This document shows positions 1 to 24,619 of a stretch of DNA of 34,175 nucleotides, one piece after another. Location of the stretch: the NCBI GenBank assembly GCA_049472355.1, contig JBLIRP010000039.1, positions 1 to 34,175 of the forward strand. Reading direction: 5' to 3'. The translations under genes were made by a program, and so were the position numbers. The notes beneath the pieces were generated by a model. That model did not search any database, was not told the origin of the DNA, and saw only the letters and a program-made list of their open reading frames with translations. The number at the start of each line of letters is the position of its first letter. Positions within the stretch are counted from its first letter, which is position 1. This stretch comes from a bacterium (lineage in GTDB: Bacteria > SZUA-182 > DTGQ01 > JAFGSM01).

Positions 1-662
1 ATTTCGCCGTCATACAGGTGATCCCTGTAATCAAGGGTATAGGGATAGGGTGGGAAGTAGGGGGAGTGCGGGTCGTAGTAGTGGAGCCACAGAAAAAATT
101 TGTCACCCTGATTTCGTTTCAGAAAGCGAAGCCCGATCCTGGTGACCTGACCTGCGTTCCTCTCGTTGAAGAGTACACTGGCCCGCTTCTTGCCCGGGGT
201 GAAATTATCATCATAAAAATCAAAACCCTGGTCCAGTCCGAAGATGGAATCGAGGACAAAGGCCCCCACACAGGCCCCTGTCCGGTATCCGTTTTCCTGC
301 ATGACCTCTGCCAGGGTAAGGATCTCCGGACTCAGGTAAAAGTTTCCATTGTTCCTGACCCCATGCTGCGCGGGATAGAGGCCGGTCATGATGGAGGTAT
401 GGGAGGGCAAGGTGATGGGCACGGGGGTGATGGCCTGGGTGAAGACCGCCCCTTCGGAGGCCAGTCGATCGATTACGGGAGTTTTCACCCTGCTGTATCC
501 GTAACATCCCAGATGATCGGCACGAAGCGTATCAATGGTGATAATGAGAAGGTTGTAGTCGAGCGGCTTGGACCTGGAGCCCATTGCCATGGCCCCTGAT
601 CCGAAGGAGAGGCAGAGGGCGGCAACCACGAGAAACAGGGGAAGCGCGCCCGGGCGTCTCAT
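1..662 (-). CDS. Sulfatase/alkaline-phosphatase superfamily protein, N-terminal part (runs off the window edge); paralogue of 659-2872
   Basis: Not in the ORF track; translated by hand from ATG at 662, which overlaps the upstream TGA (ATGA): MRRPGALPLFLVVAALCLSFGSGAMA...NLLIITIDTLRADHLGCYGY...TPVPITLPSHTSIMTGLYP...FFLWLHYYDPH...YDGE. No stop before base 1. Confidence 0.92.
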   Translation of the reverse strand, partial: MRRPGALPLFLVVAALCLSFGSGAMAMGSRSKPLDYNLLIITIDTLRADHLGCYGYSRVKTPVIDRLASEGAVFTQAITPVPITLPSHTSIMTGLYPAQHGVRNNGNFYLSPEILTLAEVMQENGYRTGACVGAFVLDSIFGLDQGFDFYDDNFTPGKKRASVLFNERNAGQVTRIGLRFLKRNQGDKFFLWLHYYDPHSPYFPPYPYTLDYRDHLYDGE

Positions 663-2872
663 TTCTTTTCGTCTTTTTCTACCATGGGATGGAGCCTCAC
701 CAGCATCTGCCGCGCCTGGACAAAATCGGGCTTTATATCGAGGGCGGCCTGGAATTCATCGATGGCATCCCTGAGGTTATTCCGTTTGTAATGGATGAAT
801 CCCAGATTAAAATGGGCTTCGGCACTCATGGGATCATGCTCTATTGCCTGTTTAAAGGCATGTATGGCATCATCGAGCCTGTCCTGTTGAAAATAGACAA
901 GACCGAGAAAATAGTGGGCGCGGCTGAAATCCGGCCTTATGGCGATCGCCTTGTTCAGCATATCCAGGGCATCGGGAAGGCGCTGGGTCGCCTGATACAC
1001 GGAGCCCAGACTGAGCAGGGCCATGGTGTCGTTCGGGTCCTTTTGCAGTACGGCGTTTGCCTCGGACACGGCCCTGTCAAAATCCCCCAATCTCTGGTAG
1101 ACCACCGAGAGGTAGTTATGGGCGCTCGTGTCATCGGGATCAAGCTCCAGGACCTTCTGGAAGAAATCCCGGGCATGTGACCACTCCCCTTGCTGAAAAT
1201 GATAAAGGGCCGTGTTGGTGTATGCCTCCTTGCACCGGGGGTTGAACTCGAGGGCCTTCTTGAAGGTGGCAAGCCCCTCCTCGTAGCGGCCCGCCTTCAT
1301 ATAGCTCACCCCGAGTTGAATGTAGATCCGCAGGTTCTCCGACTCCAGCTCAAGGGCCCTTTCAAATGCCTCGATGGATTTGGCATCCTCTCCCATTGCC
1401 TCGTAGATATGGCCCAGGGTGACATAGGCATCGGTATTTTCGGGGTGGATGTCCAATACCTTTTTAAAGAGGGGCAATGCCTTATCATAGTGCGCCTCGG
1501 CGAAATAGGCGGCGCCCCTGTCGATATACTCCAGGACCTTGATCATGTCCTTGGGATCGGGATATTCCTTCCTCTCTTCACCGCTGGTGGGCGTCCACAC
1601 GTATCCCAGGCTCCTCATCTTCTCCATGGTCTCCTTATCCATCGCCACCTGCTGCGAGGGGGCCTCGCCTTCCGGGTCGATTTCCTGGACCACCTTTGCA
1701 AATCGCTGGGACATGACCTGGGCCTGTTCCTTCTCCTTCTTGAAGAGGTTTGACTTCTCCTCAGGGTCCTTGTCCAGACGATAGAGTTCCTGCGTGGGGG
1801 CCTCGATGTACTTCCATGTCTCGTTCCTCAATCCCTTGAGAGGACTCCAGTTATGGGTGGACTTCGGATAAAACGTTTCGCAGTAAAGGTCGAGTTCCCG
1901 TGCGGGCCCCTTACCCAGCATCATTGGGGATAGTGAAACACCCTCCATATGTTCGGGTATCTTGTATCCGATCATCTCCAGGATCGTGGGGGTGATGTCG
2001 ATCAACCGAACGAGGCGGGGGATGCGTTTTCCGGCAGGGAGCATGCGCGGGCAACTGATGATCATGGGCACCCATATGGTCGAGTCGTAGATGAAAATCC
2101 CGTGGGTCTTTTCATGGTGGTCCCCGAGGCCCTCCCCGTGATCGCCGGCGAACAGGATCAGGGTGTTATCGGTCAGCCCGAGGCTGTCCATTCTGTCGAA
2201 CAGTTTCCCAAGCCAGTAATCGGCGTATGCGATCTCCCCGTCATAGGGGTTCTTTCTGTAGGCACCATCGTAGGGGGGAGGAGGCGCCCAGGCATCGTGG
2301 GGATCGAAGTAGTGAACCCACAGGAAAAAGCCCTTCTCCCCTACCCCGTCCAGCCATTTCATGGCCGTCCTGGTGACGGTTTCCGCACGCCTTTCCTTCT
2401 GTTGCAGCTTCGGCTCCACATCGGTCTCCAGGTCGTCATTGTAGGTGTCGAATCCCTGGTCAAGGCCGAAGCGTCGGTCAAGTACATAGGCGGACACGAA
2501 GGCGGCGGTTGTGTACCCGCGCTCCTTGAGCATTTCCGGGAGGGTTACCACTGAATCCGGCAGTGCATAGGTGGCATTGTTCCGAATGCCGTGCGAGGGG
2601 GGATAGAGCCCCGTGAGCATGGAGGAATGGGAGGGGAAGGTTATCGGCACCGGGGTGAATGCCTTCTCAAAGAGACACCCCCTTTTTGCCAGGCGATCGA
2701 TGTTCGGCGTTTTAACCTTCTTGTATCCGTAACATGCGATGTGATCGGCGCGGGTGGTATCGAAGGTCACCAGGAGGATATTCAATCGCGGGGGCTTTTC
2801 CGCCCCCGCGATTGAACATATAAGAAGAAAAAAAAGGGGGACGATGATAACGCGTCTTACCTTGTCCATCAT
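659..2872 (-). CDS. Exported sulfatase-like hydrolase/transferase with C-terminal TPR array
   Basis: Signal peptide; NILLVTFDTTRADH, TPVPITFPSH, HYFDPH and GDHGE motifs; roughly the last 290 aa are TPR repeats (e.g. AYVTLGHIYEAMGE, AHFNLGFIHYKRNN). ATG at 2872 overlaps the upstream stop, with GAAGGAG upstream. Confidence 0.92.
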   Translation of the reverse strand: MMDKVRRVIIVPLFFLLICSIAGAEKPPRLNILLVTFDTTRADHIACYGYKKVKTPNIDRLAKRGCLFEKAFTPVPITFPSHSSMLTGLYPPSHGIRNNATYALPDSVVTLPEMLKERGYTTAAFVSAYVLDRRFGLDQGFDTYNDDLETDVEPKLQQKERRAETVTRTAMKWLDGVGEKGFFLWVHYFDPHDAWAPPPPYDGAYRKNPYDGEIAYADYWLGKLFDRMDSLGLTDNTLILFAGDHGEGLGDHHEKTHGIFIYDSTIWVPMIISCPRMLPAGKRIPRLVRLIDITPTILEMIGYKIPEHMEGVSLSPMMLGKGPARELDLYCETFYPKSTHNWSPLKGLRNETWKYIEAPTQELYRLDKDPEEKSNLFKKEKEQAQVMSQRFAKVVQEIDPEGEAPSQQVAMDKETMEKMRSLGYVWTPTSGEERKEYPDPKDMIKVLEYIDRGAAYFAEAHYDKALPLFKKVLDIHPENTDAYVTLGHIYEAMGEDAKSIEAFERALELESENLRIYIQLGVSYMKAGRYEEGLATFKKALEFNPRCKEAYTNTALYHFQQGEWSHARDFFQKVLELDPDDTSAHNYLSVVYQRLGDFDRAVSEANAVLQKDPNDTMALLSLGSVYQATQRLPDALDMLNKAIAIRPDFSRAHYFLGLVYFQQDRLDDAIHAFKQAIEHDPMSAEAHFNLGFIHYKRNNLRDAIDEFQAALDIKPDFVQARQMLVRLHPMVEKDEKK

Positions 2873-3249
2873 CAAAACATATACTCCTTCATAAATGGAA
2901 TTATGGCCTGTCGCGGGGCGATATTGTAGGAAGAGGCATAATTGGCGACCAGAGCCCCGTAATAATCCGCCAGCGGGTCATGGGCATACAGGAACGGGGT
3001 AGTCTGGGCCATGTCAAAAAATTTGAGGGCGTAAACCAGATAGCTATACGATCCGAGTGCAGGCATATAACAATAAGGATACCCTGAGAACCGGGAGAGG
3101 TTCATGAGAGAAAAAGGGGTATATCCCGGAAAACCGTACCCCCACAGTGAATACTGGGCTGAGGCAACACCGCTGAATAAAAATGCCAGTACGCCTGCGA
3201 TCATAACAATACAAAGGCCCATCACACAAAACCTCGTCAATCGTGTCAT
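2872..3249 (-). CDS. Small secreted Tyr/aromatic-rich hypothetical protein
   Basis: GGGGGGA SD; signal peptide ending ASA|QY; Tyr/Phe/Pro-rich mature part; stop overlaps the sulfatase start. Confidence 0.75.
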   Translation of the reverse strand: MTRLTRFCVMGLCIVMIAGVLAFLFSGVASAQYSLWGYGFPGYTPFSLMNLSRFSGYPYCYMPALGSYSYLVYALKFFDMAQTTPFLYAHDPLADYYGALVANYASSYNIAPRQAIIPFMKEYMF

Positions 3250-3675
3250 GATGCTATCCCCCCCTTTGCTATTCTCTCCCTTTTCCTGCCTAAAATCAAG
3301 GAGGAATGAAGGGAGACGACGATTTCAACGGTGACATTATATTGTCGTGATATTGTCGTGGTCAGACCATTTCGGAGCGATAAGGGGAGGCCTTTTGAAG
3401 CTTCTGCACAAAACAGGGCACATGACATTGCAGGTCTTAACTGAAATAGATCCCTACAACGTGTCCGTGGCAGTCTCAAAGACTCCAAAAGGCCTGCCCA
3501 TGTGATAAGGTCAGTATGTTTATTCACACCTTTGGACCAAAGGCATCACCTCCGCATCCATCTTTGTGATCCCTGATTGGGCATAATTACCCGCTCGTTG
3601 CGACGGGGATCATTCATCTCCGGATCAAGATTTCAATAACCAATGTAATGGCTCTCACTCCTGTCTGAATCAAAA

Positions 3676-4251
3676 TTACCATGACGTAGCGGCCAGAACC
3701 CCCGGTGTCCCGTACACATCATAATAGGTCAGAAGCGAAAAGGGATCCACGCCCAGGGCATTGCCATACCCGAGCAGATAGTACTGATTGCTCAATTCAA
3801 AGAGATACAAGGCAAGCGAGAGCGGCGGCGGTTTAAGTATGGACCAGCCTAACGGCAATGCGATCGGAACCGGTGCACCTGATATCGGATCCAGCAAGTC
3901 AGGGGGTGGAAATGGCTTCAATCCGAAAAACACATCATAGTAGACAACCCCTCCGGGCGAATTATATAAAAGCCATGGATTTACGTACCCCATGGGCAAC
4001 TCGAATCCATTGGGATTGAATAGATACGTCGGCTGAACCGGCAGTATGGTACTGCTGGTCACCTCGCTCAACAAGGGCGTGGGAAGGCCGGTGAGCGGAT
4101 CGGGCGGGGAATAGACCGGAGACCACAGGGGCCACAGCAGATTATAGGGGGGCATGATCGCCCAATCTTGTGCCTGGGCCGGTGTGCCTTTGATTAACAA
4201 AAAGACCATCATCATGGTCAAGATCAGGAATAACCATCTTTTTCTCATCAT
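3676..4251 (-). CDS. Array paralogue P9 (subtype B), secreted Pro/aromatic-rich protein of unknown family
   Basis: AAGGAG SD; signal peptide AQA|QDW; PPYNLLWPLWSP, TILPVQP, YNSPGG, YLLGYGNALGVDP. Confidence 0.9.
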   Translation of the reverse strand: MMRKRWLFLILTMMMVFLLIKGTPAQAQDWAIMPPYNLLWPLWSPVYSPPDPLTGLPTPLLSEVTSSTILPVQPTYLFNPNGFELPMGYVNPWLLYNSPGGVVYYDVFFGLKPFPPPDLLDPISGAPVPIALPLGWSILKPPPLSLALYLFELSNQYYLLGYGNALGVDPFSLLTYYDVYGTPGVLAATSW

Positions 4252-4310
4252 TGTTCATCTCCTTAAACATAGATTAAGTCCGATTCAATTTCCATCAAAT
4301 CAATATGGAT

Positions 4311-4889
4311 CTAATATACGCCCACAGTGAGTGGGGGTATTCCCCAGAATTCTGCCGGTGTGAGCAGATTCGCAAGCGGCACCCCATAGATATTGGAATA
4401 CACCAGGTTTCCCAGGATGAAATGATAGGCATTGATCTCCTCAAACTCGATGGGCCCTAAAAGTGAATAGGCAAGGGGCAGGGGAATCGGTGACGGGGCA
4501 CCGGTCAAAGGACTCAACATGTAATCCGGAGGAAATGGTCTCATACCGTAGTATTGATCCCAGATCATGAGGCCGCCGCCGAGGGCCAGAGGGGCATTAT
4601 AGGCCAGCCATGGCAGCGGTCCGTTATTCGCCTCCGGAGAGGCCGGGTCCCATATCATGGCCGGCTGAACCGGAAGTATCGTCATTCGGGTCAGGGCGTT
4701 GACCAGGGGGGTCGGCAGGCCGGTAATCGGATCCGGCGGAGACAGCGCCGGAGACCACAATGGCCACAATACGTTATAAGGCGGCAAGGCTGTCCAGTAG
4801 TCTGCCTGTGCATAGGTGAAAAACACCAGGCCCACCAGAACGGTCAGAATCATGATCAAAAATACATTCCATCTTTTTCTATGCATCAT
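4311..4889 (-). CDS. Array paralogue P8 (subtype A)
   Basis: AAGGGAG SD; AQA|DYW; PPYNVLWPLWSP, YNAPLALGGG, YSNIYGVPL. Confidence 0.9.
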   Translation of the reverse strand: MMHRKRWNVFLIMILTVLVGLVFFTYAQADYWTALPPYNVLWPLWSPALSPPDPITGLPTPLVNALTRMTILPVQPAMIWDPASPEANNGPLPWLAYNAPLALGGGLMIWDQYYGMRPFPPDYMLSPLTGAPSPIPLPLAYSLLGPIEFEEINAYHFILGNLVYSNIYGVPLANLLTPAEFWGIPPLTVGVY

Positions 4890-4977
4890 TATTCTCCCTT
4901 CAATTCAATGATCTCTTCCCTGAATCGGGGATTATTTCATTCATTCATTCAACGGAGTCCCTCCCAAGATAAACACC

Positions 4978-5562
4978 TTACAAAATAATGGGTGTCGTCG
5001 GGACACCGGTACGCAGCACTGGTCCCCAGATATCAAAGGGCTGTAACAGGCTCAGGAATTCCAGGCCGCTGAGTCCGAAGGTAAGGGCGTAGTAGATGTT
5101 CGCCATGGGCACGTAATATTCCCATTCCCCTGATGCATAGGGTGCCAACAGGGTGGGTGCCAATGGCAGAGGAATCGGTGCGGGTGCACCGGTCAGAGGA
5201 TCCAGCATATAGCTTGGCGGCCAGGGATTGATGCCATACGCTTCATGATAATACAACAGCCCTGAGCCGAAGGCAGCGGGCGTATTATAGAGAAGATAGG
5301 GCACCGGTTGGCACGGGTCCCAAACCAGACCGGGCTGGACCGGAAGTACCGTATTCCTGGTCAATGAACTGACCAGGGGTGTGGTGAGGCCCGTGACCGG
5401 ATCAATGGGTGACAATCCGGGAGACCAGAGGGGCCACAAGACATTATAGGGTGGCATGATGGTCCAGTACTGGGCCTGAATACTGATGGCACAAACAAGA
5501 CACAATGCCGCCATAAAGGTCATCATGAGTATAAGGCTTCTGCAGTGCTTTGACATATTCAT
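4978..5562 (-). CDS. Array paralogue P7 (subtype C)
   Basis: GGAGGG SD at 5567-5572 favours ATG 5562 or 5556 over the TTG at 5574; IQA|QYW; YNTPAAFGSG, YALTFGLSG. Confidence 0.9.
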   Translation of the reverse strand: MNMSKHCRSLILMMTFMAALCLVCAISIQAQYWTIMPPYNVLWPLWSPGLSPIDPVTGLTTPLVSSLTRNTVLPVQPGLVWDPCQPVPYLLYNTPAAFGSGLLYYHEAYGINPWPPSYMLDPLTGAPAPIPLPLAPTLLAPYASGEWEYYVPMANIYYALTFGLSGLEFLSLLQPFDIWGPVLRTGVPTTPIIL

Positions 5563-5626
5563 TTGTCCCTCCAAACCTCATTTCATTTCAATAAAACCAG
5601 CTCTCATTAACCAAAGGCAGATATTG

Positions 5627-5713
5627 ATCATCCACCGATCACCTCCCGGTAGTAACAATAATTGTTTTTCCATTGCAAAGAGAATGGTATGTATCATCCA
5701 TCGATCACCTCCC
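5627..5713 (-). repeat. Two 21-bp direct repeats (5627-5647, 5693-5713), each a perfect extended SD plus a start codon
   Basis: Minus strand GGGAGGTGATCG(A/G)TGGATGAT twice, one mismatch, 66-nt period. Confidence 0.8.
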
Positions 5714-5840
5714 CGAAGTCATAATGGTTGGTTTCCCGTGTGAATCGATTGAATGGCCATGGATCGGATATCGAACGTATGAACGTATTGTCGAATAGTT
5801 GCACGCGGGAAATGCCGCTGTTCCCTCACAGGGAACATAA

Positions 5841-6248
5841 TCAGCGCAGGATTATGGAGACCTCGATGAGCCGAATGTGTTGGGATGGAATATCTTCTAA
5901 GAATGCAATGGCTCTCTGGTAGGTATTTAATCCGACAAATTTGAGGTGCCCGGAAGGGTCAAACAGGCTTGCACATGACCTCAAAACGGCCGGAGGGGAA
6001 AGGAATGCATAATGTCTTCTTGATTCATTCTCATTGTTCAAATTCTCCAGGATATCAATAAAGTTCCTTGGTGCTGCGCCTGCATGATGATGGGGTATAT
6101 CTGATACAAAGATGCTGAGAAGATGACCGCTCAGATCAAGAAATTCGCATATCCCGATGTGCGTACAACGCACGTATTCAGGTGCATCGAAGGCACTCAT
6201 GAAAAAGAAAAGGCACACCAGGCATAGTACGAGGCATTTGCGACTCAT
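5841..6248 (-). CDS. Hypothetical ~135-aa protein with Cys-rich hydrophobic N-terminus
   Basis: ORF 5841-6308; likely ATG 6248 after AGGTGGG; MSRKCLVLCLVCLFFFMSAF...; no recognisable domain. Confidence 0.5.
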   Translation of the reverse strand: MSRKCLVLCLVCLFFFMSAFDAPEYVRCTHIGICEFLDLSGHLLSIFVSDIPHHHAGAAPRNFIDILENLNNENESRRHYAFLSPPAVLRSCASLFDPSGHLKFVGLNTYQRAIAFLEDIPSQHIRLIEVSIILR

Positions 6249-6744
6249 AGCATATCCCACCTGATTGGTATTTCGTGCCGGAGTCACGATTATTGTTGAC
6301 TCTTGCAAAATTGATCAAGGGTAATAAACCCTTACCATACGTATTACACGTGCAAAAGGGAAAGTGAGTAAAGCAGCAATGCCAAAATAACAGGAGAGCG
6401 GAGTTGTGAAAAGCAAATCGAAAAGGGCCGAGTGATTCAAACAGAACCCGTCTCAGCAGGAAAGGGGAGAGTAAAAGGACCGTATGCGTTGATGTTGAAG
6501 AGAACTGACCAGCAGGTGCCCCTTATCGCACGTTTGTCGAGCCGGAGCGATTAACTGAGTTCCCCTTCGGTCTCTTGTATGATGATTCTTTTATTACAGG
6601 ATGTCTGTGAGGCCGGAGCGGTTGTCATGCCATTATCTTGATACGGCATTGACCGCTCCTCTCATGAATGAAGTTGCTCCTCCTTCATAAAGGTGGATGC
6701 AGTGCTATCCGCTATAGAAACACTATATTCTTTTCTTACTTATA

Positions 6745-6773
6745 ATTATAAAAAATTTATTATACAGAGTCAA
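6745..6773 (-). promoter_or_regulatory. Sigma70-type promoter for the distal part of the array
   Basis: Minus strand TTGACT (6773-6768), 17-nt spacer, TATAAT (6750-6745), in an AT-rich tract. Confidence 0.75.
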
Positions 6774-6833
6774 GATTCTTTCTCATATATAATATATAGA
6801 CATCTTAAAAAAAGGAAGGATCCATTGGAATGG

Positions 6834-6876
6834 ATCGAAGTCCTGCGAGGGGATAGTCCCCTCGCAGGACTTCGAT
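6834..6876. terminator. Perfect 20-bp inverted repeat just downstream of P6 (terminator or 3' stabiliser)
   Basis: ATCGAAGTCCTGCGAGGGGA-tag-TCCCCTCGCAGGACTTCGAT; followed on the minus strand by a second small hairpin and a T run. Confidence 0.7.
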
Positions 6877-6909
6877 AGTCGTTCCCGGCCCCCCCTCTGC
6901 CGCCATTGT

Positions 6910-7488
6910 TCACAGAATCGGCAGGCCGAAGGCCTGTGCCGCGGTGACCAGTGATGAGGGATTGATTCCCAGGTTATACCCATAGGCAAGCATATAATAG
7001 AGATTGCCCAAATCATACAGGTAAGTGGCCTGGACGATGCCGAGTACGGCGGATGCCGTACTGAGCAGGGAGTAACCGGGCAGCAGGGTAATGGGAGCAG
7101 GCACCCCGGTAACCGAATCGAGGTAGCTTGCCGGGGGCCAGGGATTTATCCCGTAGAGCGTGTCGAAGAATACCAAACCGGTGGGGCCGTTATACAGGAG
7201 CCACGGCGGTATCGTCCCCAACATGGCCCACCCGAGTTTCGGCAGGGTGGGATCCCAGGCCATGACAGGCTGCACCGGGAGCACCGTGCTGCTGGTAAGC
7301 TGGGTCACCAGGGGAGTGGGAACGCCTGTAATAGGGTTCGGCGGTGAGTAGAACGGGGTGTAAAGGGGCCACAGGACATTGTACGGCGGCATGGCCACCC
7401 AGTTCTGTGCCGTGGCTCCCTGAATACTCACCAGGACTATGACGACAGCAACAGGTATGAGCACATACCATCTCTTTTGTGTAAGCAT
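6910..7488 (-). CDS. Array paralogue P6 (subtype B)
   Basis: AGGAGGA SD at 7497-7503 favours ATG 7488; ATA|QNW; YNGPTG, YMLAYGYNLGINP. Confidence 0.9.
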   Translation of the reverse strand: MLTQKRWYVLIPVAVVIVLVSIQGATAQNWVAMPPYNVLWPLYTPFYSPPNPITGVPTPLVTQLTSSTVLPVQPVMAWDPTLPKLGWAMLGTIPPWLLYNGPTGLVFFDTLYGINPWPPASYLDSVTGVPAPITLLPGYSLLSTASAVLGIVQATYLYDLGNLYYMLAYGYNLGINPSSLVTAAQAFGLPIL

Positions 7489-7522
7489 GGGCATTATCCT
7501 CCTTCTCCGCATAGTAGGCCTA

Positions 7523-8101
7523 TCAGATGGGCGGAAGGCCCCAGATCTGCGACGGAGTCAACAGATTGAGGAAGTCCGCCCCTGTTATCCCATAGTTGAG
7601 GGCATAGTTGACATTGGCAGTGGGAATAATCCACTCGAGTTCGGTCGTTGATGTGGGCAGCAGGAGCGAATAGGTTGTGAGAAGGGAGATAGGGGCAGGT
7701 GCACCGGTTATAGGATCCTGGAGATATGCCGGCGGGAATGGATTCATGCCGTAAATCTTGTCGAAAAACGCCATTCCGCCTCCGAATGCGAGAGGAATAT
7801 TATAGAGTGCCCAGATGTACCCCGAGGCATTCGAAGGGGAAGGGTCCCATACCACCATCGGCTGAACGGGGAGTATGGTATTCCTGGTAAGCGCAGGGAG
7901 CAGAGGGGTGGGTATACCTGCCGCATTCGGCGGTGACAGGACCGGGGACCAGAGGGGCCACAGCAGATTATAGGGGGGTATGGCAGCCCAGTTCTGGGCC
8001 CCCACCGTGGGGGTCATGAGCAGACCCAAGGCGGCCACGATAATACACATGACCAGTACGATAGAGGGAATAACGGGCAAGCATTTTCTCCTTTTATACA
8101 T
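7523..8101 (-). CDS. Array paralogue P5 (subtype C)
   Basis: AAGGAGG SD; VGA|QNW; YNIPLAFGGG, YALNYGITG. Confidence 0.9.
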   Translation of the reverse strand: MYKRRKCLPVIPSIVLVMCIIVAALGLLMTPTVGAQNWAAIPPYNLLWPLWSPVLSPPNAAGIPTPLLPALTRNTILPVQPMVVWDPSPSNASGYIWALYNIPLAFGGGMAFFDKIYGMNPFPPAYLQDPITGAPAPISLLTTYSLLLPTSTTELEWIIPTANVNYALNYGITGADFLNLLTPSQIWGLPPI

Positions 8102-8193
8102 ACGTAGACCTCCTTTTATGCCGAAAACATATCAACCATCGGCTCTCGGCAGCACAGGTCGGCTTTCATACGCATACACCATTTCCCCACGTG

Positions 8194-8763
8194 CTAAAAC
8201 ACCGCAGGAGGCAATGCGGAAAAGGGCGTATATCCCCAGATGTCTGCACTCGTTAAAAACGGTGTTGACGGCAATCCATATTGAGCGATGTACGTGAGAT
8301 TGGCCAAGGGTATAAAGTATTCAAATCCCTTCAAGGCAACGGGCAGATAGACGGACCAACCCAGAGGAAGTGCTATGGGATTTGGAGTACCGGTGACGGA
8401 ATCGAGCAAATAGGATGGGGGAAACGGATTGAGGCCATAGGTTATGTCAAAAAAAAGCATGCCGCCTCCAAGGGCCAAAGGGGTATTATAGAGGGCCCAC
8501 GGCAATGACCTATATGGATCCTTCACCAGGCCCGGCTGAACCGGTAATAGTGTATTACTTGTCAGGGAACTGATAAGAGGGGTCGCAAGCCCGGTGGCAG
8601 GATCAACGGGAGAAAGCGCCGGAGACCATAGCGGCCACATGAGATTGTAAGGCGGCAGTGCGGCCCAATACTGCGCATGCATGAGATCCGGCACGATCAT
8701 GCCTGCTATAACCAGTATGAGGAAGGCACATAGCAGGATTACCTTTTTCCTTTCTTTGTACAT
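8194..8763 (-). CDS. Array paralogue P4 (subtype A)
   Basis: GAGGTGA SD; MHA|QYW; YNTPLALGGG; ends LPPAVF like P1. Confidence 0.9.
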   Translation of the reverse strand: MYKERKKVILLCAFLILVIAGMIVPDLMHAQYWAALPPYNLMWPLWSPALSPVDPATGLATPLISSLTSNTLLPVQPGLVKDPYRSLPWALYNTPLALGGGMLFFDITYGLNPFPPSYLLDSVTGTPNPIALPLGWSVYLPVALKGFEYFIPLANLTYIAQYGLPSTPFLTSADIWGYTPFSALPPAVF

Positions 8764-8940
8764 AACTCACCTCATGCTATTGACTATGATGATTCATATC
8801 ATAGGATTATGTTCTTCTAAAAACCAGTCGACACGTTCATGATTCACCACTATACTACATAGATTCACACCCCCTTCGTGGAATGATTTGTTTATCTCCC
8901 ATTCTTAACCATCTATCCTTTTGAACTAAAGGGAAATCGC

Positions 8941-9513
8941 TTAAATCGCCGGAAAACCCCATAATTGTGCTGTAGTCAACAGATTGAGGTATTCCGGCCC
9001 TGTCAAGCCATACGTAAGTGCATATATCGCATTGGCAAGCGGAATAAAGAATGCCTCGCCGCCGCCTTGCGCACCCGTTACAGGCAAGAGGCCGTATGTG
9101 ACGGTAAAGGTAATCGGATTGGGGACGCCGGCAACGGAATCATAGAGATTCGGCGGAGGCCAGGAATTGAGTCCATACAGCCGATCAAAGTAGAGTAATC
9201 CTGAGCCGAAGGCGACGGGTGTATTGTAGAGGGCCCAGATGCTGGTGGTAGGATCCCATGCTATACACGGCTGAACCGGAAGGATGGTGTTCCTGGTGAG
9301 TTCGGTGACAATGGGTGTTGTGCCGCGGAGCACAAGGGGATCCCAATTGAAATCGGTAACCAGGGGTGGTGACCACAGCGGCCAGAGGACATTGTATGGC
9401 GGCATAAGTGCCCAGTTCTGGGCGCGTGCTGCCGGACTCATGAGCGATCCGAGGATGCTCAAGGCCATAACGGTAAGAAGCAGAAGAAAGAAACCTTTCC
9501 TTTTTCTAATCAT
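8941..9513 (-). CDS. Array paralogue P3 (subtype C)
   Basis: AAGGAGGAG SD; ARA|QNW; YNTPVAFGSG, YALTYGLTG. Confidence 0.9.
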   Translation of the reverse strand: MIRKRKGFFLLLLTVMALSILGSLMSPAARAQNWALMPPYNVLWPLWSPPLVTDFNWDPLVLRGTTPIVTELTRNTILPVQPCIAWDPTTSIWALYNTPVAFGSGLLYFDRLYGLNSWPPPNLYDSVAGVPNPITFTVTYGLLPVTGAQGGGEAFFIPLANAIYALTYGLTGPEYLNLLTTAQLWGFPAI

Positions 9514-9616
9514 GAGCGAATCTCCTCCTTTGAAACATACCTAATATAAGGATCTTGTATGAGCTTATGAGAACCCAATCTTTCGCTCAAAATCATTCCA
9601 TCCGGAAAAAGCCTCC

Positions 9617-10189
9617 TTATATCGGGGGAAGTCCCCACAAATCCCCGTACGTCAGCAATGAGGAAGGGCTAACGCCGAGGGAGTTGCCGTAAGCAAGCAG
9701 GTACGACAGATTTGCCAGATCGACCAGGTACTGGTATTCAACCGATATCCTCCAGGTGAACACGGGATATGTGCTCCACCCTGCCGGCAAGGCCAGAGGA
9801 ACGGGCGCCCCGGTGACGGAATCGAGCAGAGAGGATGGCGGCCAGGGATTCAGCCCGTACCACAGGTCGAAAAATTGCACGCCCACGGGTGAGTTGTAAA
9901 ACATATAGGGAAATACATCACCCATCGGCGACACAATGGGGGTGAGGGGATTAAGACCGAGGGCGGGTTGCACAGGAAGTATCGTACTACGGGAAAGCTC
10001 GGTGATCAGAGGGGTGGGCACCCCCGTAATCGGATCAGGTGGAGAAAGCACGGGAGACCACAGCGGCCAGAGTATATTATACGGGGGTAATGCCGCCCAG
10101 GTTTGTGCGGAAGCCACTGGGGTGATGAGCAGGCAGCCTGCAATCGCAATGGCCACTATAACGATCAAGAACTTTATTTTCCTAATCAT
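9617..10189 (-). CDS. Array paralogue P2 (subtype B)
   Basis: AAAGGAGGG SD favours ATG 10189 (MIRKIK); ASA|QTW; YNSPVG, YLLAYGNSLGVSP. Confidence 0.9.
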   Translation of the reverse strand: MIRKIKFLIVIVAIAIAGCLLITPVASAQTWAALPPYNILWPLWSPVLSPPDPITGVPTPLITELSRSTILPVQPALGLNPLTPIVSPMGDVFPYMFYNSPVGVQFFDLWYGLNPWPPSSLLDSVTGAPVPLALPAGWSTYPVFTWRISVEYQYLVDLANLSYLLAYGNSLGVSPSSLLTYGDLWGLPPI

Positions 10190-10208
10190 AGAACTCATCC
10201 CTCCTTTA

Positions 10209-10787
10209 CTAAAAAACGCTTGGCGGTAAAAGGGCAAGCGGCGTCAGTCCCCAGATATCTACAGCAGTCAACAGGCTGGTGAGAGGCACTCCGTATATAT
10301 TCGAATAATATGTATTGGCCAAGGGCAGATACCACTGCAGGTTCTTTAGATCGGTCGGCAACAGGAGCGACCATCCGAGGGGCAGGGCAATGGGGTTCGG
10401 AACACCGGTTGCGGAATCTACCAAATAGCTGGGAGGCCATTGATTCAAGCCATAAAAGACATCATAGAATAACAACTGATTCCCAAGCGCGGCCGGCGTA
10501 TTGTAGAGCAGCCAGGGGATTCCGGCACCACTCGGTTGAACAGGGTCCCATGCCATAACGGGCTGGATCGGGAGGATGGTATTCCTGGTGATCGCGTTTA
10601 CCAGGGGTGTGGCAAGACCGGTCACCGGATCAATGGGAGACAGGATGTCCGACCAGAGCGGCCAGAGGACATTGTAAGGGGGAAGGGCTGCCCAGTACTG
10701 GGCATGGACAAGGGAAAACCCCATCCCTATGACGATGAAGATAATAAGGGCACATAACACAATCGAATCATGTCTTCCTTTGTACAT
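10209..10787 (-). CDS. Array paralogue P1 (subtype A), first gene of the array
   Basis: GAGAGGTGA SD; VHA|QYW; YNTPAALGNQ, YSNIYGVPL; ends LPPSVF. Confidence 0.9.
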   Translation of the reverse strand: MYKGRHDSIVLCALIIFIVIGMGFSLVHAQYWAALPPYNVLWPLWSDILSPIDPVTGLATPLVNAITRNTILPIQPVMAWDPVQPSGAGIPWLLYNTPAALGNQLLFYDVFYGLNQWPPSYLVDSATGVPNPIALPLGWSLLLPTDLKNLQWYLPLANTYYSNIYGVPLTSLLTAVDIWGLTPLALLPPSVF

Positions 10788-11336
10788 AATTCACCTCTCA
10801 TAACTACCCCATTATCGTTATGTGGATCGAAACCTGATCGTTTAACCAAAAACGACCATCGTGCGCGCACTTACATCAATACACCCCTTTCTACAAAGAA
10901 ATCTGAATGAACTGGAAGGAAAAACATGGACAAGCCAATGCGTCGAATAGATCTCACCTCCTCACAAAAAGGATCTGAGGATATGCGTTATCCTCTATAC
11001 TTTGGACGTATCTATACATTCACACGTGCAGGTTTGACACGGCATACAAAGGAGCAGATACGAATTTTTACAAATCCCTCTATTACGGGAGCCCGCAATA
11101 AAAGATCACGCGCGATACATAAGGATTAAAGAAAGGACTGGATGCTGGCTGGAAATTGGAGGACGGAATGTGCGCAAGCGGTCAGATTATGCAAATGTTT
11201 TTCCGCACAGGAAAAGGACATTGAAACGCCTGCAAGACGATTGGACAATGAACAGGATTTATTTGAAAAAAAATCAAGGCCCCTTTTTTTGAATAGGCAT
11301 CAACCCCTTACTAAGGAGATAAATAATTATATCCAA

Positions 11337-11365
11337 ATTCTAATTCAATTATGTTCAAAAGTCAA
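11337..11365 (-). promoter_or_regulatory. Sigma70-type promoter upstream of the array
   Basis: Minus strand TTGACT (11365-11360), 17-nt spacer, TAGAAT (11342-11337), with very AT-rich upstream DNA. Confidence 0.65.
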
Positions 11366-11545
11366 TAGTAATTATTTGTATTAATAAGTTATTGTAGTCT
11401 AATTTTTTTGAAATATTTTTATGTTTGATATTATTTAGAAGATATAAATAAAGCCATGATAAGAATATTCTGATAGTTTAATCAATCAATCTGGCACCAC
11501 TATTTATTAACTCTTTGTAATCTCTATTTTTTTCTTGCCAGGGAA

Positions 11546-11574
11546 TTGACTCCTTCCCCCGGGTGTTTTACAAT
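11546..11574 (+). promoter_or_regulatory. Sigma70-type promoter of the GT2 operon
   Basis: TTGACT-N17-TACAAT, 45 nt before ATG 11620. Confidence 0.7.
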
Positions 11575-11619
11575 GGCATAACTATTTCATCGTTTGGTTT
11601 TCTGAAATGCTGAGGCATC

Positions 11620-12555
11620 ATGGATAAACAACCGAAGGTCAGTTGCATCATCCCGACATACAACCGCGCATCATGTCTCTCCCAGGCCATCGATTCGGTG
11701 CTGGCCCAGGATTATGAAGACCTCGATCTGCTCGTTGTCGATGATGGCTCTACCGACCATACCTCCTCCATCCTGGAGGGATACGGACAAAGGATCCATG
11801 CCTTTCACCAGCCCCACAAGGGGGTCAGTGCGGCAAGAAATCTGGGGCTTGAGAAGTCCAAAGGCGAATACATCGCCTATCTCGATTCCGATGATGTGTG
11901 GTTGCCACGGAAGATATCCATCCAGGCCCGGTTCCTTGACCGGAATCCCGACTATCCCCTCTGCTACACCGAGGAGATCTGGTATCGAAACGGCATACGG
12001 GTCAATCCGGGAAAGAGACATCGAAAATATTCCGGCCGTATCTTCACCCAGTGTCTTCCCCTGTGTATCATCAGTCCCTCATCAGCCATGATGCGCAAAA
12101 AGATCCTGGAAGAGGCAAGCGGATTTGACGAAGACCTGCCTGCGGCGGAGGACTATGCCCTCTGGCTTCGGATCACCGCCTGCCATCCGGTATACCTTGT
12201 TCCCATGCCACTGATCGTGAAAAGGGGTGGGCATCCGGACCAGCTCTCCCGTTCGGTCGCCCACATTGATCGTTACAGAATCAAGGCACTTACAAAGATA
12301 CTCACCAGGGGAAAACCTACTTCGGCGCTATGGCACCAGGCATGGAGAGAGCTCCGTGCAAAATGCCGAATCTACGGCGAAGGCTGCCATAGGCATGGCC
12401 GCCGGGATGAGGCGGCCTTCATCCTCGCCCTGCCCGAGACAATCCTCAAACGCTCAGGGCAGCAAAGGGATTGCTCGGCCGCGCCTCCCTCTCAACCCGA
12501 CCATACCGCGGGTATCACACAACCCGCAGACTGCCCTGCAATGATGGTCTCCTGA
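11620..12555 (+). CDS. Glycosyltransferase family 2 (GT-A fold)
   Basis: VSCIIPTYNR, VVDDGSTD, GVSAARNLG, IAYLDSDD, EDYALWLR. Confidence 0.93.
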   Translation: MDKQPKVSCIIPTYNRASCLSQAIDSVLAQDYEDLDLLVVDDGSTDHTSSILEGYGQRIHAFHQPHKGVSAARNLGLEKSKGEYIAYLDSDDVWLPRKISIQARFLDRNPDYPLCYTEEIWYRNGIRVNPGKRHRKYSGRIFTQCLPLCIISPSSAMMRKKILEEASGFDEDLPAAEDYALWLRITACHPVYLVPMPLIVKRGGHPDQLSRSVAHIDRYRIKALTKILTRGKPTSALWHQAWRELRAKCRIYGEGCHRHGRRDEAAFILALPETILKRSGQQRDCSAAPPSQPDHTAGITQPADCPAMMVS

Positions 12556-12577
12556 TGCCCGATAGGGAGGAAATCGT

Positions 12578-13567
12578 ATGACCGGAAACAGTGCCGATAA
12601 ATCGGTGCGCTGCACCCTCGAATCCCTTGATATATCGCGGATCGATGTGAACAACAGGGAGTTCGGCCTTCATTTCTTCCGAAACCCTTCCCCCTCGCTC
12701 GTTGAGTCCGTAAAACAGTTCGGCATTATCTACCCCCCTCTCGTGCGCGCCGCTGGCAGTGGCTTCCAAATCCTGGACGGATTTCTGCGCATCGAGGCCG
12801 CCCGATTGTGCAACACAAAGGTGATCCAGTGCAGCGTGTGCGATGAAAACCTCGATCATCAGCACCTTGCCCGGTTTCTCCTGTCCATCGCCCTTTCGGG
12901 GGGCCTGCCCCACATACTGGACAGGGCGGTCATCGTACAGAAAATGACCGCGATCCTCCCACAGGATCGCGTGGTCAGGGACATTCTTCCCCTCCTCGGC
13001 CTGCAGCCTAACACGAAGGTGCTCCAAAGGCTCGTGCCCCTTTCCAGGCTGGACGAAGAAATGGGCAGGGCACTGCTCGATCAAAGGATCAATCATGACA
13101 TGGCGCTTCGGCTCATGGAACTTGAACCTGAGGTGCGATCCCGCATCACCACCCTGTTTCTTTATTTCCGGTATAGTCAGTCCAAGCAGTTCGAGATTCT
13201 GGACAATCTCCTGGACATCGCAGAAAGGGAACAGGTATCCCCGGTTCAAGTCCTTGAGGAGGTGGGATGGAACGGAGAAGGCCCGGAACCGCCCGAAGAA
13301 AACAGGGTTGCCGCCGGAGAGGCATTGCGAAACGAACTCAGGGATCGCCGGTACCCCACAATGACGGGCCTGGAGAGGTCATGGAGGACGAGAATCAAAT
13401 CCCTCCGCCTGCCCCCCTCCATCTCCCTCACGCCCCCCTCTTCCTTTGAGGGGAGTACCTACCGGATCAGTTTCGCCTTCAAGACCCTGGAAGAATACAA
13501 GGCACTACTCTCCAGGCTGAAGGACATGGGTGAACAGGATGAGTGGACGCAACTGCTCCCCGGTTAG
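12578..13567 (+). CDS. ParB/Srx N-terminal domain protein
   Basis: LVESVKQFGIIYPPLVR...FQILDGFLRIEAAR matches the ParB/Srx boxes; GGGAGG SD. Confidence 0.75.
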   Translation: MTGNSADKSVRCTLESLDISRIDVNNREFGLHFFRNPSPSLVESVKQFGIIYPPLVRAAGSGFQILDGFLRIEAARLCNTKVIQCSVCDENLDHQHLARFLLSIALSGGLPHILDRAVIVQKMTAILPQDRVVRDILPLLGLQPNTKVLQRLVPLSRLDEEMGRALLDQRINHDMALRLMELEPEVRSRITTLFLYFRYSQSKQFEILDNLLDIAEREQVSPVQVLEEVGWNGEGPEPPEENRVAAGEALRNELRDRRYPTMTGLERSWRTRIKSLRLPPSISLTPPSSFEGSTYRISFAFKTLEEYKALLSRLKDMGEQDEWTQLLPG

Positions 13568-21814: not shown

Positions 21815-22789
21815 ATGAAAAGATTACACAGAGGTACAGGGTATTCATGGCGGACGATAGTGGCTCGATCATTTCTCTCAATCATTCTCGCCTTCATCAT
21901 AGGGTTGACTTGGTCCTGCATAGCCCAGGCAGCAGTGTCCCCAAAGACCATGTCCATAAAGTACAAATCCGGGAAGGTCTCCGCTGTGCTGAAGGGTGTT
22001 CCCGCTAAAGAGGTGTACGAATATCTTGCAGAAAAGACAGGGGTTGAATTCGTTGGCCTCAATGAAATAACCGGAACCATTGAAGATCTTGAATTTAATG
22101 ACCTTACCCTTGAAGAGGCCATTCGCGCACTGGGTAAAAACAGCATCCTGATCTTTCGAAAGGAAGGTCCTCAGGATGAGGAAATGACCATCAAGAAGGT
22201 CATTTTTGTTGCCCATCAGCAAGAGGAACAACCAACACCACCACCCACCCCGGTGCAGCCCCCTCCACCACGGGAATTGACGCCCCCTGCTCCACCCGCA
22301 CCGCCTGCTCCACCAAGGCCTCCGGCACCTCCCAAGGCCCCTGAAGCACCCCCTGCAACCCCCGTCACCCCTCCCAGCGTCCGTCAGCCCGAGCCCCCCC
22401 CGCCCCCCCCGGTGCAAAGGCCAACCCCGCCCCCGGTACAAAGGCCAACCCCGCCCCCAGTGGTAACACCCGCACCCAAACCCAAGCCAAAGGATGCAAA
22501 TCTCGAAAAGGGGCTCAAATATTACGAGGAAAAGCGCTGGGACCTGGTAATAAAATATCTTAAGTTGTACCTGCAAAAGAATCCCGGGGATCAGGAAATC
22601 CAGCAGAAGCTCGACCAAGCGAATAAAAATTCCGACGAGGCGATCCGGCTTTACAAATTGGGTAAGACGGCTCAGGGCTCCGGCAATTTCTCCGAGGCAT
22701 ACGGGCATTACAAGGCAGCCTACGAACTCTATCCCCTCCTGTACGACGCCTGGGAGAGAATGCGAGCGATGCAGAAAAAGATACAGTGA
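21815..22789 (+). CDS. Exported protein: secretin-N0/STN-like domain, Pro-rich linker, TPR-like C-terminus
   Basis: Signal peptide; GVPAKEVYEYLAEKTGV...FNDLTLEEAIRAL; long poly-Pro linker with PPPVQRPT twice; helical TPR-like end. The domain call is by eye. Confidence 0.7.
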   Translation: MKRLHRGTGYSWRTIVARSFLSIILAFIIGLTWSCIAQAAVSPKTMSIKYKSGKVSAVLKGVPAKEVYEYLAEKTGVEFVGLNEITGTIEDLEFNDLTLEEAIRALGKNSILIFRKEGPQDEEMTIKKVIFVAHQQEEQPTPPPTPVQPPPPRELTPPAPPAPPAPPRPPAPPKAPEAPPATPVTPPSVRQPEPPPPPPVQRPTPPPVQRPTPPPVVTPAPKPKPKDANLEKGLKYYEEKRWDLVIKYLKLYLQKNPGDQEIQQKLDQANKNSDEAIRLYKLGKTAQGSGNFSEAYGHYKAAYELYPLLYDAWERMRAMQKKIQ

Positions 22790-24307: not shown

Positions 24308-24619
24308 ATGGAAATGAGAAAGAGCGGAATTATCTCTTGTCTTATCGTCGTGCTTCTCATTGCTCTGTGCTTCTCCCTCATCGGACAGGCCAACGCCTAT
24401 TACGGGCTGTATGGCGGACTGTACGGCGGACTCTATGGGGGCCTCTACGGTGGACTGTACGGCGGCCTCTACGGTGGACTGTACGGAGGACTCTACGGCG
24501 GGCTGTACGGAGGACTCTACGGCGGGCTGTACGGAGGACTCTACGGAGGACTCTATGGAGGACTGTATGGAGGACTCTATGGAGGACTCTACGGCGGGCT
24601 GTACGGCGGCTGGTGGTAA
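24308..24619 (+). CDS. Secreted Gly/Leu/Tyr repeat protein: signal peptide + YYG(LYGG)17WW
   Basis: GGAGG SD; signal peptide ending ANA; all variation among the 17 repeat units is at third codon positions in this frame. Confidence 0.9.
   Translation: MEMRKSGIISCLIVVLLIALCFSLIGQANAYYGLYGGLYGGLYGGLYGGLYGGLYGGLYGGLYGGLYGGLYGGLYGGLYGGLYGGLYGGLYGGLYGGLYGGWW
24407..24610 (+). repeat. 17 x 12-bp coding tandem repeat (CTS TAY GGN GGN)
   Basis: Counted directly from the sequence. Confidence 0.95.

Follow-up and report, generated by a model that had tools for sequence, protein, structure and literature searches.

Among described surface proteins, those closest in logic to the system reported here are the CWB2 and SLH anchors, which form pseudo-trimers and are described, in the accounts cited, for Gram-positive cell walls (PMC4973711, PMC8559796); the CWB2 module (PF04122) is built of three non-identical repeats that are not interchangeable and differ in length (PMC4973711). 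The system in question is an array of nine genes (P1–P9) at positions 3676–10787 of a 34,175-nucleotide stretch of bacterial DNA (contig JBLIRP010000039.1, positions 1 to 34,175, assembly GCA_049472355.1; GTDB lineage Bacteria; SZUA-182; DTGQ01; JAFGSM01), the whole of which is called the window below. We lean slightly towards the reading that such genes encode heterotrimers from which an exported, hydrophobic coat is built, in cassettes that each carry one copy of three subtypes, A, B, and C. In composition, their closest counterparts are the Streptomyces chaplins and BslA, and by sequence the family belongs to none of the compared systems.

The likeness to SLH and CWB2 would lie in three unlike copies of one module acting together, in the many passenger fusions, and in the large paralogue families per genome. 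However, the three repeats of those anchors lie in one chain and are mainly helical, whereas here they are divided among three genes and are proline-rich with little regular structure; moreover, those anchors are described for Gram-positive walls, whereas the present genome carries BamA and LpxC, which points to a cell with two membranes and lipopolysaccharide. Neither the SLH profile (PF00395) nor that of CWB2 matches any of the nine proteins in Pfam (E up to 1) or any of the four scanned against NCBIfam, and the fold of these anchors is missing from the Foldseek and VIA-align listings for the P1 model (best Z 2.6), where being unlisted is not the same as being excluded. Chaplins and BslA likewise comprise several exported hydrophobic paralogues per genome, in short and long forms, and the proteins described here are also exported, hydrophobic, and low in charge (5.9% charged residues), with 35 family matches in the genome. 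They differ in having a 160-residue domain, modeled as a compact globule, and no sortase anchor; neither Pfam nor the PDB sequences (E up to 10) yield a match to a chaplin or BslA domain, and we know of no fixed one-of-each cassettes among the chaplins.

S-layer proteins share with the family the traits of being exported, abundant, and lineage-specific, often with trimeric or pseudo-trimeric anchors, and the lattice folds listed in the same account are Ig-like, β-roll, β-helix, and coiled-coil (PMC8559796); by contrast, the family model matches no solved chain. The nearest ESM Atlas clusters are those of PE-PPE (PF08237; 0.88, 129/256 features), a group of Actinomycetota; this likeness is probably composition-driven, the value falls below the lead level of 0.9, and in view of the missing Pfam match the identity was rejected. 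Analogies with gas vesicles, sulfur globules, and cannulae were dropped, there being no match of any kind. Outside subscription journals, we found no published description of the family, including in the literature on heterotrimeric S-layer anchors and on hydrophobic paralogue coats.

An array of nine exported paralogues

The array consists of the following nine minus-strand genes, delimited as open reading frames (ORFs) and assigned to subtypes by alignment:

10209..10787 (−): P1, subtype A, cassette I, 192 aa, with a signal peptide and a 163-aa domain
9617..10189 (−): P2, subtype B, cassette I, 190 aa
8941..9513 (−): P3, subtype C, cassette I, 190 aa
8194..8763 (−): P4, subtype A, cassette II, 189 aa
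7523..8101 (−): P5, subtype C, cassette II, 192 aa
6910..7488 (−): P6, subtype B, cassette II, 192 aa, counted from an ATG with a ribosome-binding site
4978..5562 (−): P7, subtype C, cassette III, 194 aa
4311..4889 (−): P8, subtype A, cassette III, 192 aa
3676..4251 (−): P9, subtype B, cassette III, 191 aa

The products (189–194 aa) align over their full length with 31 invariant columns; each gene is preceded by a Shine-Dalgarno-like site, and each protein begins, by eye, with a Sec signal comprising a basic start, a hydrophobic core, and an A-x-A end. The mature N-terminus is Gln in eight of the nine, as it is in 132 of 174 family rows, and this residue would permit N-terminal pyroglutamate in the members that have it; the Q-rule of Bacteroidota offers a parallel. 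The mature domains are 41–62% identical in pairs, with P1 and P4 the closest in the window (62%), and contain 16% Leu, 16% Pro, and 14% aromatic residues, the family median of charged residues being 6.1%.

A sequence-only reading of the window had split the nine genes into three triplets, with the orders ABC, ACB, and CAB. The genes, the motif classes, and the orders are real: every motif it quoted is present in the alignment, including YSNIYGVPL, which is identical in P1 and P8. ORF coordinates likewise confirm that the two largest intergenic gaps coincide with triplet borders (19, 103, 177, 92, 34, 1347, 88, and 59 nt in transcription order from P1 to P9), a coincidence with a chance of 1 in 28 by simple arithmetic. 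The gap of about 1.35 kb has the size and place given to it, but within it lie a conserved 135-aa ORF and sites that resemble a terminator and a promoter. As 216 of the 1680 orderings of AAABBBCCC (12.9%; p=0.129) give one of each in three consecutive triplets, the window pattern by itself is within chance, and its support comes from other loci.

A further C-A-B run, C52, was rejected as an independent cassette, being 89% identical to 573–6865 of the window over 6.3 kb including the flanks; it is probably a second allele or strain. Relative to the C52 copies, P7, P8, and P9 show 25, 36, and 34 synonymous versus 5, 17, and 7 non-synonymous codon changes, respectively, and these sums (95 versus 29) indicate that P7–P9 are under selection. 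The C52 version of the region begins at the hairpin behind P6, and a near-identical public array (L001) is window-like in P1–P6 and C52-like in P7–P9, a pattern that suggests two alleles or an assembly bubble.

Subtype B is a firm clade, with A and C as motif classes

Two of the proposed diagnostics, namely the ALG/AFG difference and the terminal V(F/Y), fail outside the window; among the representatives, the F is found in 2/9 of subtype A and absent from 4/10 of subtype C. Across 30 representatives, the robust markers lie in the loop at the end of the helix: YG-x-P in A, YG-x-x-G in C, and YG-x-x-LG-x-x-P in B. Subtype B is further set apart by the lack of the four-residue loop behind YNxP, an extra loop with an invariant Met (11/11), an Asp/Glu preceding the helix Asn (10/11), and the LG..P behind the helix (11/11). 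C shows Ala-Leu in 10/10 and Gly in 9/10 along with Phe/Tyr-Leu, and A has the shortest helix-end loop and the fewest private fixed residues of the three. Mean identity is 56–60% within a subtype versus 50% within a cassette.

Phylogenetic analysis bears partly on the claim of three clades crossing the triplets. In an IQ-TREE analysis of the nine proteins, B is recovered at 97/97 and A at 40/32, and C is not monophyletic; the approximately unbiased (AU) test rejects each of the positional triplets as a clade (p of 0.007, 0.001, and 0.008) and does not reject a C clade (p of 0.35). With 35 array members, B (100/98) and C (89/89) are recovered and A is a grade; when each cassette is represented by a single gene and five rows from outside are added, B is again supported (99/97), A and C are not resolved, and an A clade is not rejected (p of 0.46). 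A further type, D, has a C-like tail and nests within C in the representative tree (82/90) and outside it in a 174-row FastTree; in the latter, three solitary genes are of the D type and none of the 51 solitary genes falls inside the B clade. In cassettes III and VI, the A, B, and C genes each form sister pairs (100/99 each). Thus, grouping by position is rejected and B stands as a firm clade, whereas A and C, whose status as clades is neither shown nor rejected, are motif classes that share one A+C group.

One-of-each cassettes in related genomes

We fetched 20 regions around top-scoring family matches and labeled their genes by motif, with four labels revised after the trees (the first genes in genomes G008 and G011 to D, two others to X). 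This gave 26 runs of adjacent genes, 13 of which were counted after setting aside 10 that end at a contig or locus end, two without A, B, or C genes, and C52. Eleven of the 13 complete runs, from seven genomes, parse into one-of-each triplets, viz., ABCCAB (twice), CAB (four times), ACBABC, CABABC followed by X, ABC (twice), and ABCACB; shuffling yields a mean of 1.67 and a maximum of 7, with 0 of 20,000 as high. Three cassette orders (ABC, CAB, and ACB) thereby share the same composition. Eight of the nine runs at contig or locus ends that carry A, B, or C genes are compatible with such triplets, and up to eight cassettes were seen in a single genome. Over the first 60 columns, a C gene on contig C27 shares 83% identity with P3, and thereafter 52–54%, versus 59–63% and then 69–83% with its cassette orthologues, a pattern of recombination inside subtype C.

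The expectation that homologous loci come in multiples of three fits most of the complete runs, but breaks down in genus g5, with D-A-B-C-B in G008 and G011 and A-B-C-B at a contig end in G009 (one A and two B). The three exceptions all belong to this genus and are probably one event. Counting D as C turns the complete g5 runs into CABCB, which is still no multiple of three. Most family members lie outside ABC cassettes, either solitary or in non-ABC arrays. One such array in the genome of the window (57265–59818 (+) on contig C116 of genome G000) has four non-ABC members and is kept as four or three genes at three other loci (L019, L035, and L030); it may be a second hetero-oligomer cassette.

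A predicted A-B-C complex

An AlphaFold2 model of mature P1 from 148 alignment rows (predicted local distance difference test [pLDDT] 91.8, predicted template-modeling score [pTM] 0.85) is a compact globule of short strands, much irregular proline-rich chain, and a single helix at 124–136. Foldseek returned no PDB match at E up to 0.001 and none in BFVD, and VIA-align over 48,161 chains reached a best Z of 2.6, a lack of matches that by itself does not show a new fold. The B monomer is modeled poorly from its 24-row alignment (pLDDT 61).

For the complex, P1 (A, chain 1), P3 (C, chain 2), and P2 (B, the scored partner) were modeled with subtype alignments of 57, 46, and 24 rows, respectively. 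The combination scored 0.86, versus 0.64 for the best of three controls; contacts agree between runs at 89% or more, and partner pLDDT is at least 86. Of 157 solved complexes, 116 reach the mark that it passes, as do 2 of 215 mismatched pairs; these figures are rough for a three-chain job with its own alignments. As no comparable complex was found by sequence in the PDB or by fold with Foldseek and VIA-align, a pass drawn from the memory of the model is unlikely. In the model, the interface is formed by the C-terminal helices (A 120–135, C 117–145, B 122–147), where the subtype motifs are situated; on one side, the 80–92 region of A with its hairpin (80–86) lies against the tail of B, and, on the other, the B hairpin (80–86) sits on the C tail (149–151). 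The lowest-error pairs join Leu137/Ala138 of B to Ala131, Ala134, and Tyr144 of C, positions that are fixed within their subtypes, and the 25 lowest-error contacts listed are all between B and C.

The prediction supports, but does not show, the binding of P2 to both P1 and P3, and we regard an ABC heterotrimer as likely. A-C contacts being absent from the reported list, a pseudo-threefold ring would be closed from C to A by extrapolation from the model. Of the earlier claim of an obligate ABC hetero-oligomer in three variants, the hetero-oligomer is thus favored by the model, but strict threes are broken in g5; the unit may be obligate and the triplets may be three separate variants.

An order-specific family with passenger fusions

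The family profile matches 838 proteins (8000 scored) and 100 representatives (among 1.84 billion), and, where named, the matched proteins are labeled 'hypothetical protein'. Members are present in 12/12 other genomes of the same order, with 10–70 matches each, and in 0/28 genomes outside it; hence, within this sample, the family is found only in one bacterial order. Named records carrying it are assigned to an unclassified 'bacterium' or to Pseudomonadota metagenome-assembled genomes, and one accession range among them belongs, according to the source, to sediment metagenome-assembled genomes (PMC13280167). None of the nine proteins matches any Pfam family (E up to 1), none of the four scanned matches NCBIfam, no PDB sequence is matched at E up to 10, and an Rfam scan of 2800–11700 gave one chance match only.

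Whereas each array gene encodes a single family domain, elsewhere the domain mostly occurs at the N-terminus of long proteins with β-helix, PKD, LVIVD, FG-GAP, or BACON domains; Pfam matches were found in 3 of the 16 long proteins scanned, and other long members have Pro/Thr-rich stalks. In the genome of the window (G000), a 4581-codon frame with β-helix-like repeats (21176–34921 (−) on contig C72) contains two internal family domains. The many copies, the scarcity of charged residues, export, and the fusions to passengers together suggest a structural coat of the envelope or surface, a role that we consider fairly probable.

Expression and a leader-like ORF

The 1347-nt gap between P6 and P7 contains three features:

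6819..6865 (−): two hairpins behind P6, the second terminator-like (terminator scan 6836–6819)
6745..6773 (−): sigma-70-like promoter match TTGACT-17-TATAAT (11/12), upstream of the leader-like ORF and cassette III
5841..6248 (−): leader-like ORF of 135 aa with an N-terminal hydrophobic segment and the motif DAPEY-x2-C-x-H-x4-C-EFL, supported by an alignment of homologues

The hairpins likely mark the end of a P1–P6 unit, and RNA contigs of two studies stop at 6890–6902, a weak hint of an end on the P6 side. The promoter match is unchanged in two near copies; as the scan found 12 sites versus 12.9 expected, it counts as a consensus match only. RNA cover comes from four of ten listed runs, themselves found by searching with this stretch: contigs from four libraries (three studies) cover parts of P1–P6, which attests presence only and may derive from library DNA. 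They bridge P2–P3, P4–P5, P5–P6, and the 177-nt P3–P4 gap (X1, 8265–9068; X2, 8516–9151). A bridging contig proves no single transcript; nevertheless, the spanning of the 177-nt border weakly suggests that triplets 1 and 2 are not separate units. The four runs have little or no cover on 2500–3500, 11260–12600, and most of P7–P9, and provide no ranking of expression.

The leader-like ORF belongs to a family found at the head of operons for exported proteins of low charge, with members in 11 of 13 genomes of the order; these share DAPEY-x2-C-x-H-x4-[C/D]-EFL as well as I-x-x-S-[VI]-I-x-[SR] at the C-terminus; in an alignment of nine, the D, C, and EFL are invariant (9/9) and the second Cys is present in 7/9. 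Among the best 30 of 50 leader loci, 14 have a family gene as the first or second downstream ORF (nine of these built the profile and two nearly duplicate the window), 10 stand before different exported proteins that are, by eye, Tyr/Gly/Pro-rich, two precede unrelated genes, and four have too little flank. No leader ORF was found ahead of P1, the profile having one match on the contig. A tandem pair of leader-like ORFs occurs on contig C22 of G011, and, between the leader ORF and P7 (5600–5720 (−)), GGGAGGTGATCG-(A/G)TGGATGAT occurs twice, each time as a strong ribosome-binding site followed by a frame of 15–20 codons, and both copies are kept in C52 and L001.

In its short, operon-heading form with a hydrophobic N-terminus and a Cys motif, the ORF resembles the CutF, CruR (DUF2946), and CzcI leaders, which, as described, also share a conserved C-terminal end, a poorly conserved middle, and a spacer of 69–535 nt (PMC9426467, PMC9973294). 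It differs in lacking RAPP or a proline-rich end, its C-termini being I-x-x-S-[VI]-I-x-S, although CzcI is likewise described there as lacking the proline motif (PMC9973294); furthermore, those leaders, so far as these sources cover them, head metal transport or detoxification genes, whereas this one heads structural-looking exported proteins. There is no Pfam match, and none of nine homologues matches DUF2946 or CzcI at E up to 10; an ESM feature lead to CzcI/DUF8440 stands at 0.94, with only 108 of 256 features in common. The ORF probably couples expression to export or to a metal signal.

Neighboring genes

Downstream of the array lies a gene of another unnamed family:

2872..3249 (−): exported Tyr/Gly-rich protein of 125 aa with a conserved C-terminal helical-looking motif

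Its homologues adjoin family genes in G008, G009, G011, and G012. A sulfatase-TPR gene (659–2875 (−)) follows directly downstream, and sulfatase-like genes, by eye, also stand behind arrays at loci L101 and L106. Farther away, 24308–24619 (+) encodes an exported protein of 103 aa made up almost entirely of GLYG repeats, with no match in Pfam or NCBIfam; similar Gly/Tyr-rich proteins stand behind the leader ORF at L150 and L159, and the GLYG-repeat protein is possibly another coat component. The product of 21815–22789 (+) is exported, with a Pro-rich linker and a C-terminal TPR; its N-terminal part is secretin N-domain-like by eye and has no Pfam match there.

Mechanism and competing explanations

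We propose that one exported domain of 160 residues has diverged into three copies that assemble 1:1:1 as a heterotrimer, each triplet being the cassette for one such complex. In the model, B would pack on A as well as on C by means of the C-terminal helices and of a head-to-tail contact, with Leu137/Ala138 of B against the three C residues named above setting the subunit order. The near-uncharged, proline- and aromatic-rich trimers, exported by Sec in a two-membrane cell, would then form a hydrophobic surface or envelope coat, joined by single-gene paralogues (presumed homotrimers), some of which would display β-helix, PKD, LVIVD, or Pro/Thr-stalk passengers. Cassettes may multiply by tandem duplication with differential loss, along with recombination inside a subtype; a tandem ABCABC with differential loss could yield ABC, CAB, ACB, and ABCB. 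Besides the recurring cassettes and the complex score, the heterotrimer draws support from the absence of B among the solitary genes, the rejection of positional clades, and the three orders of like composition. Several points weigh against this proposal. The shuffle test overstates the case, since its 13 runs trace back to some nine cassette lineages that are related to one another, in seven related genomes. No A, B, or C gene was found in three further genomes, G007, G010, and G012 (completeness 95, 91, and 76%), for which 5/15, 14/21, and 2/10 top matches were checked (one of the last from the first region set). There the fetched top matches are non-ABC, and thus no cassettes were found in these three genera; all 35 further members, from 20 more regions, score best against a non-ABC profile. 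A and C are not recovered as proven clades, and the C-like D also occurs in solitary form (three rows). The listed interface shows no significant enrichment in subtype-specific columns (Fisher p of 0.33, 0.075, and 0.092, the A-C face being outside the list); the control that retains B and C with A replaced is the one still scoring 0.64; close cousins of true partners pass as well (10 of 12 colicin pairs), and the subunits are about 50% identical. The scored combinations were P1+P3+P2 and its three controls, and no protein with three tandem domains appears among 18 longer homologues, which is weak as a sign of absence.

One competing explanation, which we think unlikely but of some weight, makes the B-C pair the fixed unit, with the third seat taken by any A or other paralogue, one A serving two B-C pairs, and cassettes mixing. 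It would account for the score kept by B and C when A is replaced, the confinement of the lowest-error contacts to B-C, and, once D is counted as C, a B:C ratio of 1:1 in 13/13 complete runs with A short in g5; the closeness of P1 and P4 and the few private fixed residues of A point the same way. Yet an A of its own is present in 11 of the 13 runs, cassettes III and VI carry sister genes for every one of the subtypes, and adding A raises the score by 0.22. More doubtful still is the notion that homotrimers or random mixed trimers form and the triplets are merely the trace of a duplicated ancestral set of three genes, retained for the sake of dosage or of a varied surface: linkage alone accounts for co-inheritance, most members are solitary or in non-ABC arrays, and the chance-level window pattern, the restriction of the scores to ABC and its controls, and the g5 exception all leave room for it. 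Block duplication, however, preserves order, whereas three orders here keep one of each; B is never alone (0/51 solitary rows), the subtype-fixed residues face each other in the model, and the recombination on C27 stays inside subtype C.

Least probable in our estimation is a real heterotrimer that forms no coat, being instead a module of the periplasm or outer membrane that binds a ligand or metal, or else the subunit of a filament, under leader regulation. The C-x-H-x4-C motif of the leader and its ESM likeness to CzcI, as well as the invariant Met and near-invariant Asp/Glu of B, would fit a metal-related function, and the head-to-tail contact could propagate as a helix. Against this, A, B, and C share no conserved set of metal ligands, so low a charge is unusual for a soluble binding protein, 10–70 copies with passenger fusions fit a structural role, and the other genes behind the leader encode exported proteins rich in Tyr, Gly, and Pro rather than transporters.

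Implications

What would be new here is the family, its fold, and the cassette logic; the likely job, a surface coat, would be of a familiar kind. Returning to the coat of A-B-C heterotrimers, a bolder version, which we advance tentatively and with more doubt than conviction, would make it a new class: ordered A-B-C heterotrimers of an undescribed proline-rich fold, in interchangeable cassettes, co-polymerizing with passenger-displaying paralogues and switched by exported leader peptides that sense export or metal. All three subunits are small and co-expressible, and the central claim is therefore directly testable. If true, the family would offer a natural series from presumed homotrimers (solitary genes) to an ordered heterotrimer, repeated in about nine cassette lineages, and hence a tractable model for the origin of a fixed subunit order among paralogues. 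For an uncultured bacterial order, it would give the first structure of an envelope; it would also provide a new leader-peptide family and, for self-assembling hydrophobic materials, a new fold that brings its own display site.

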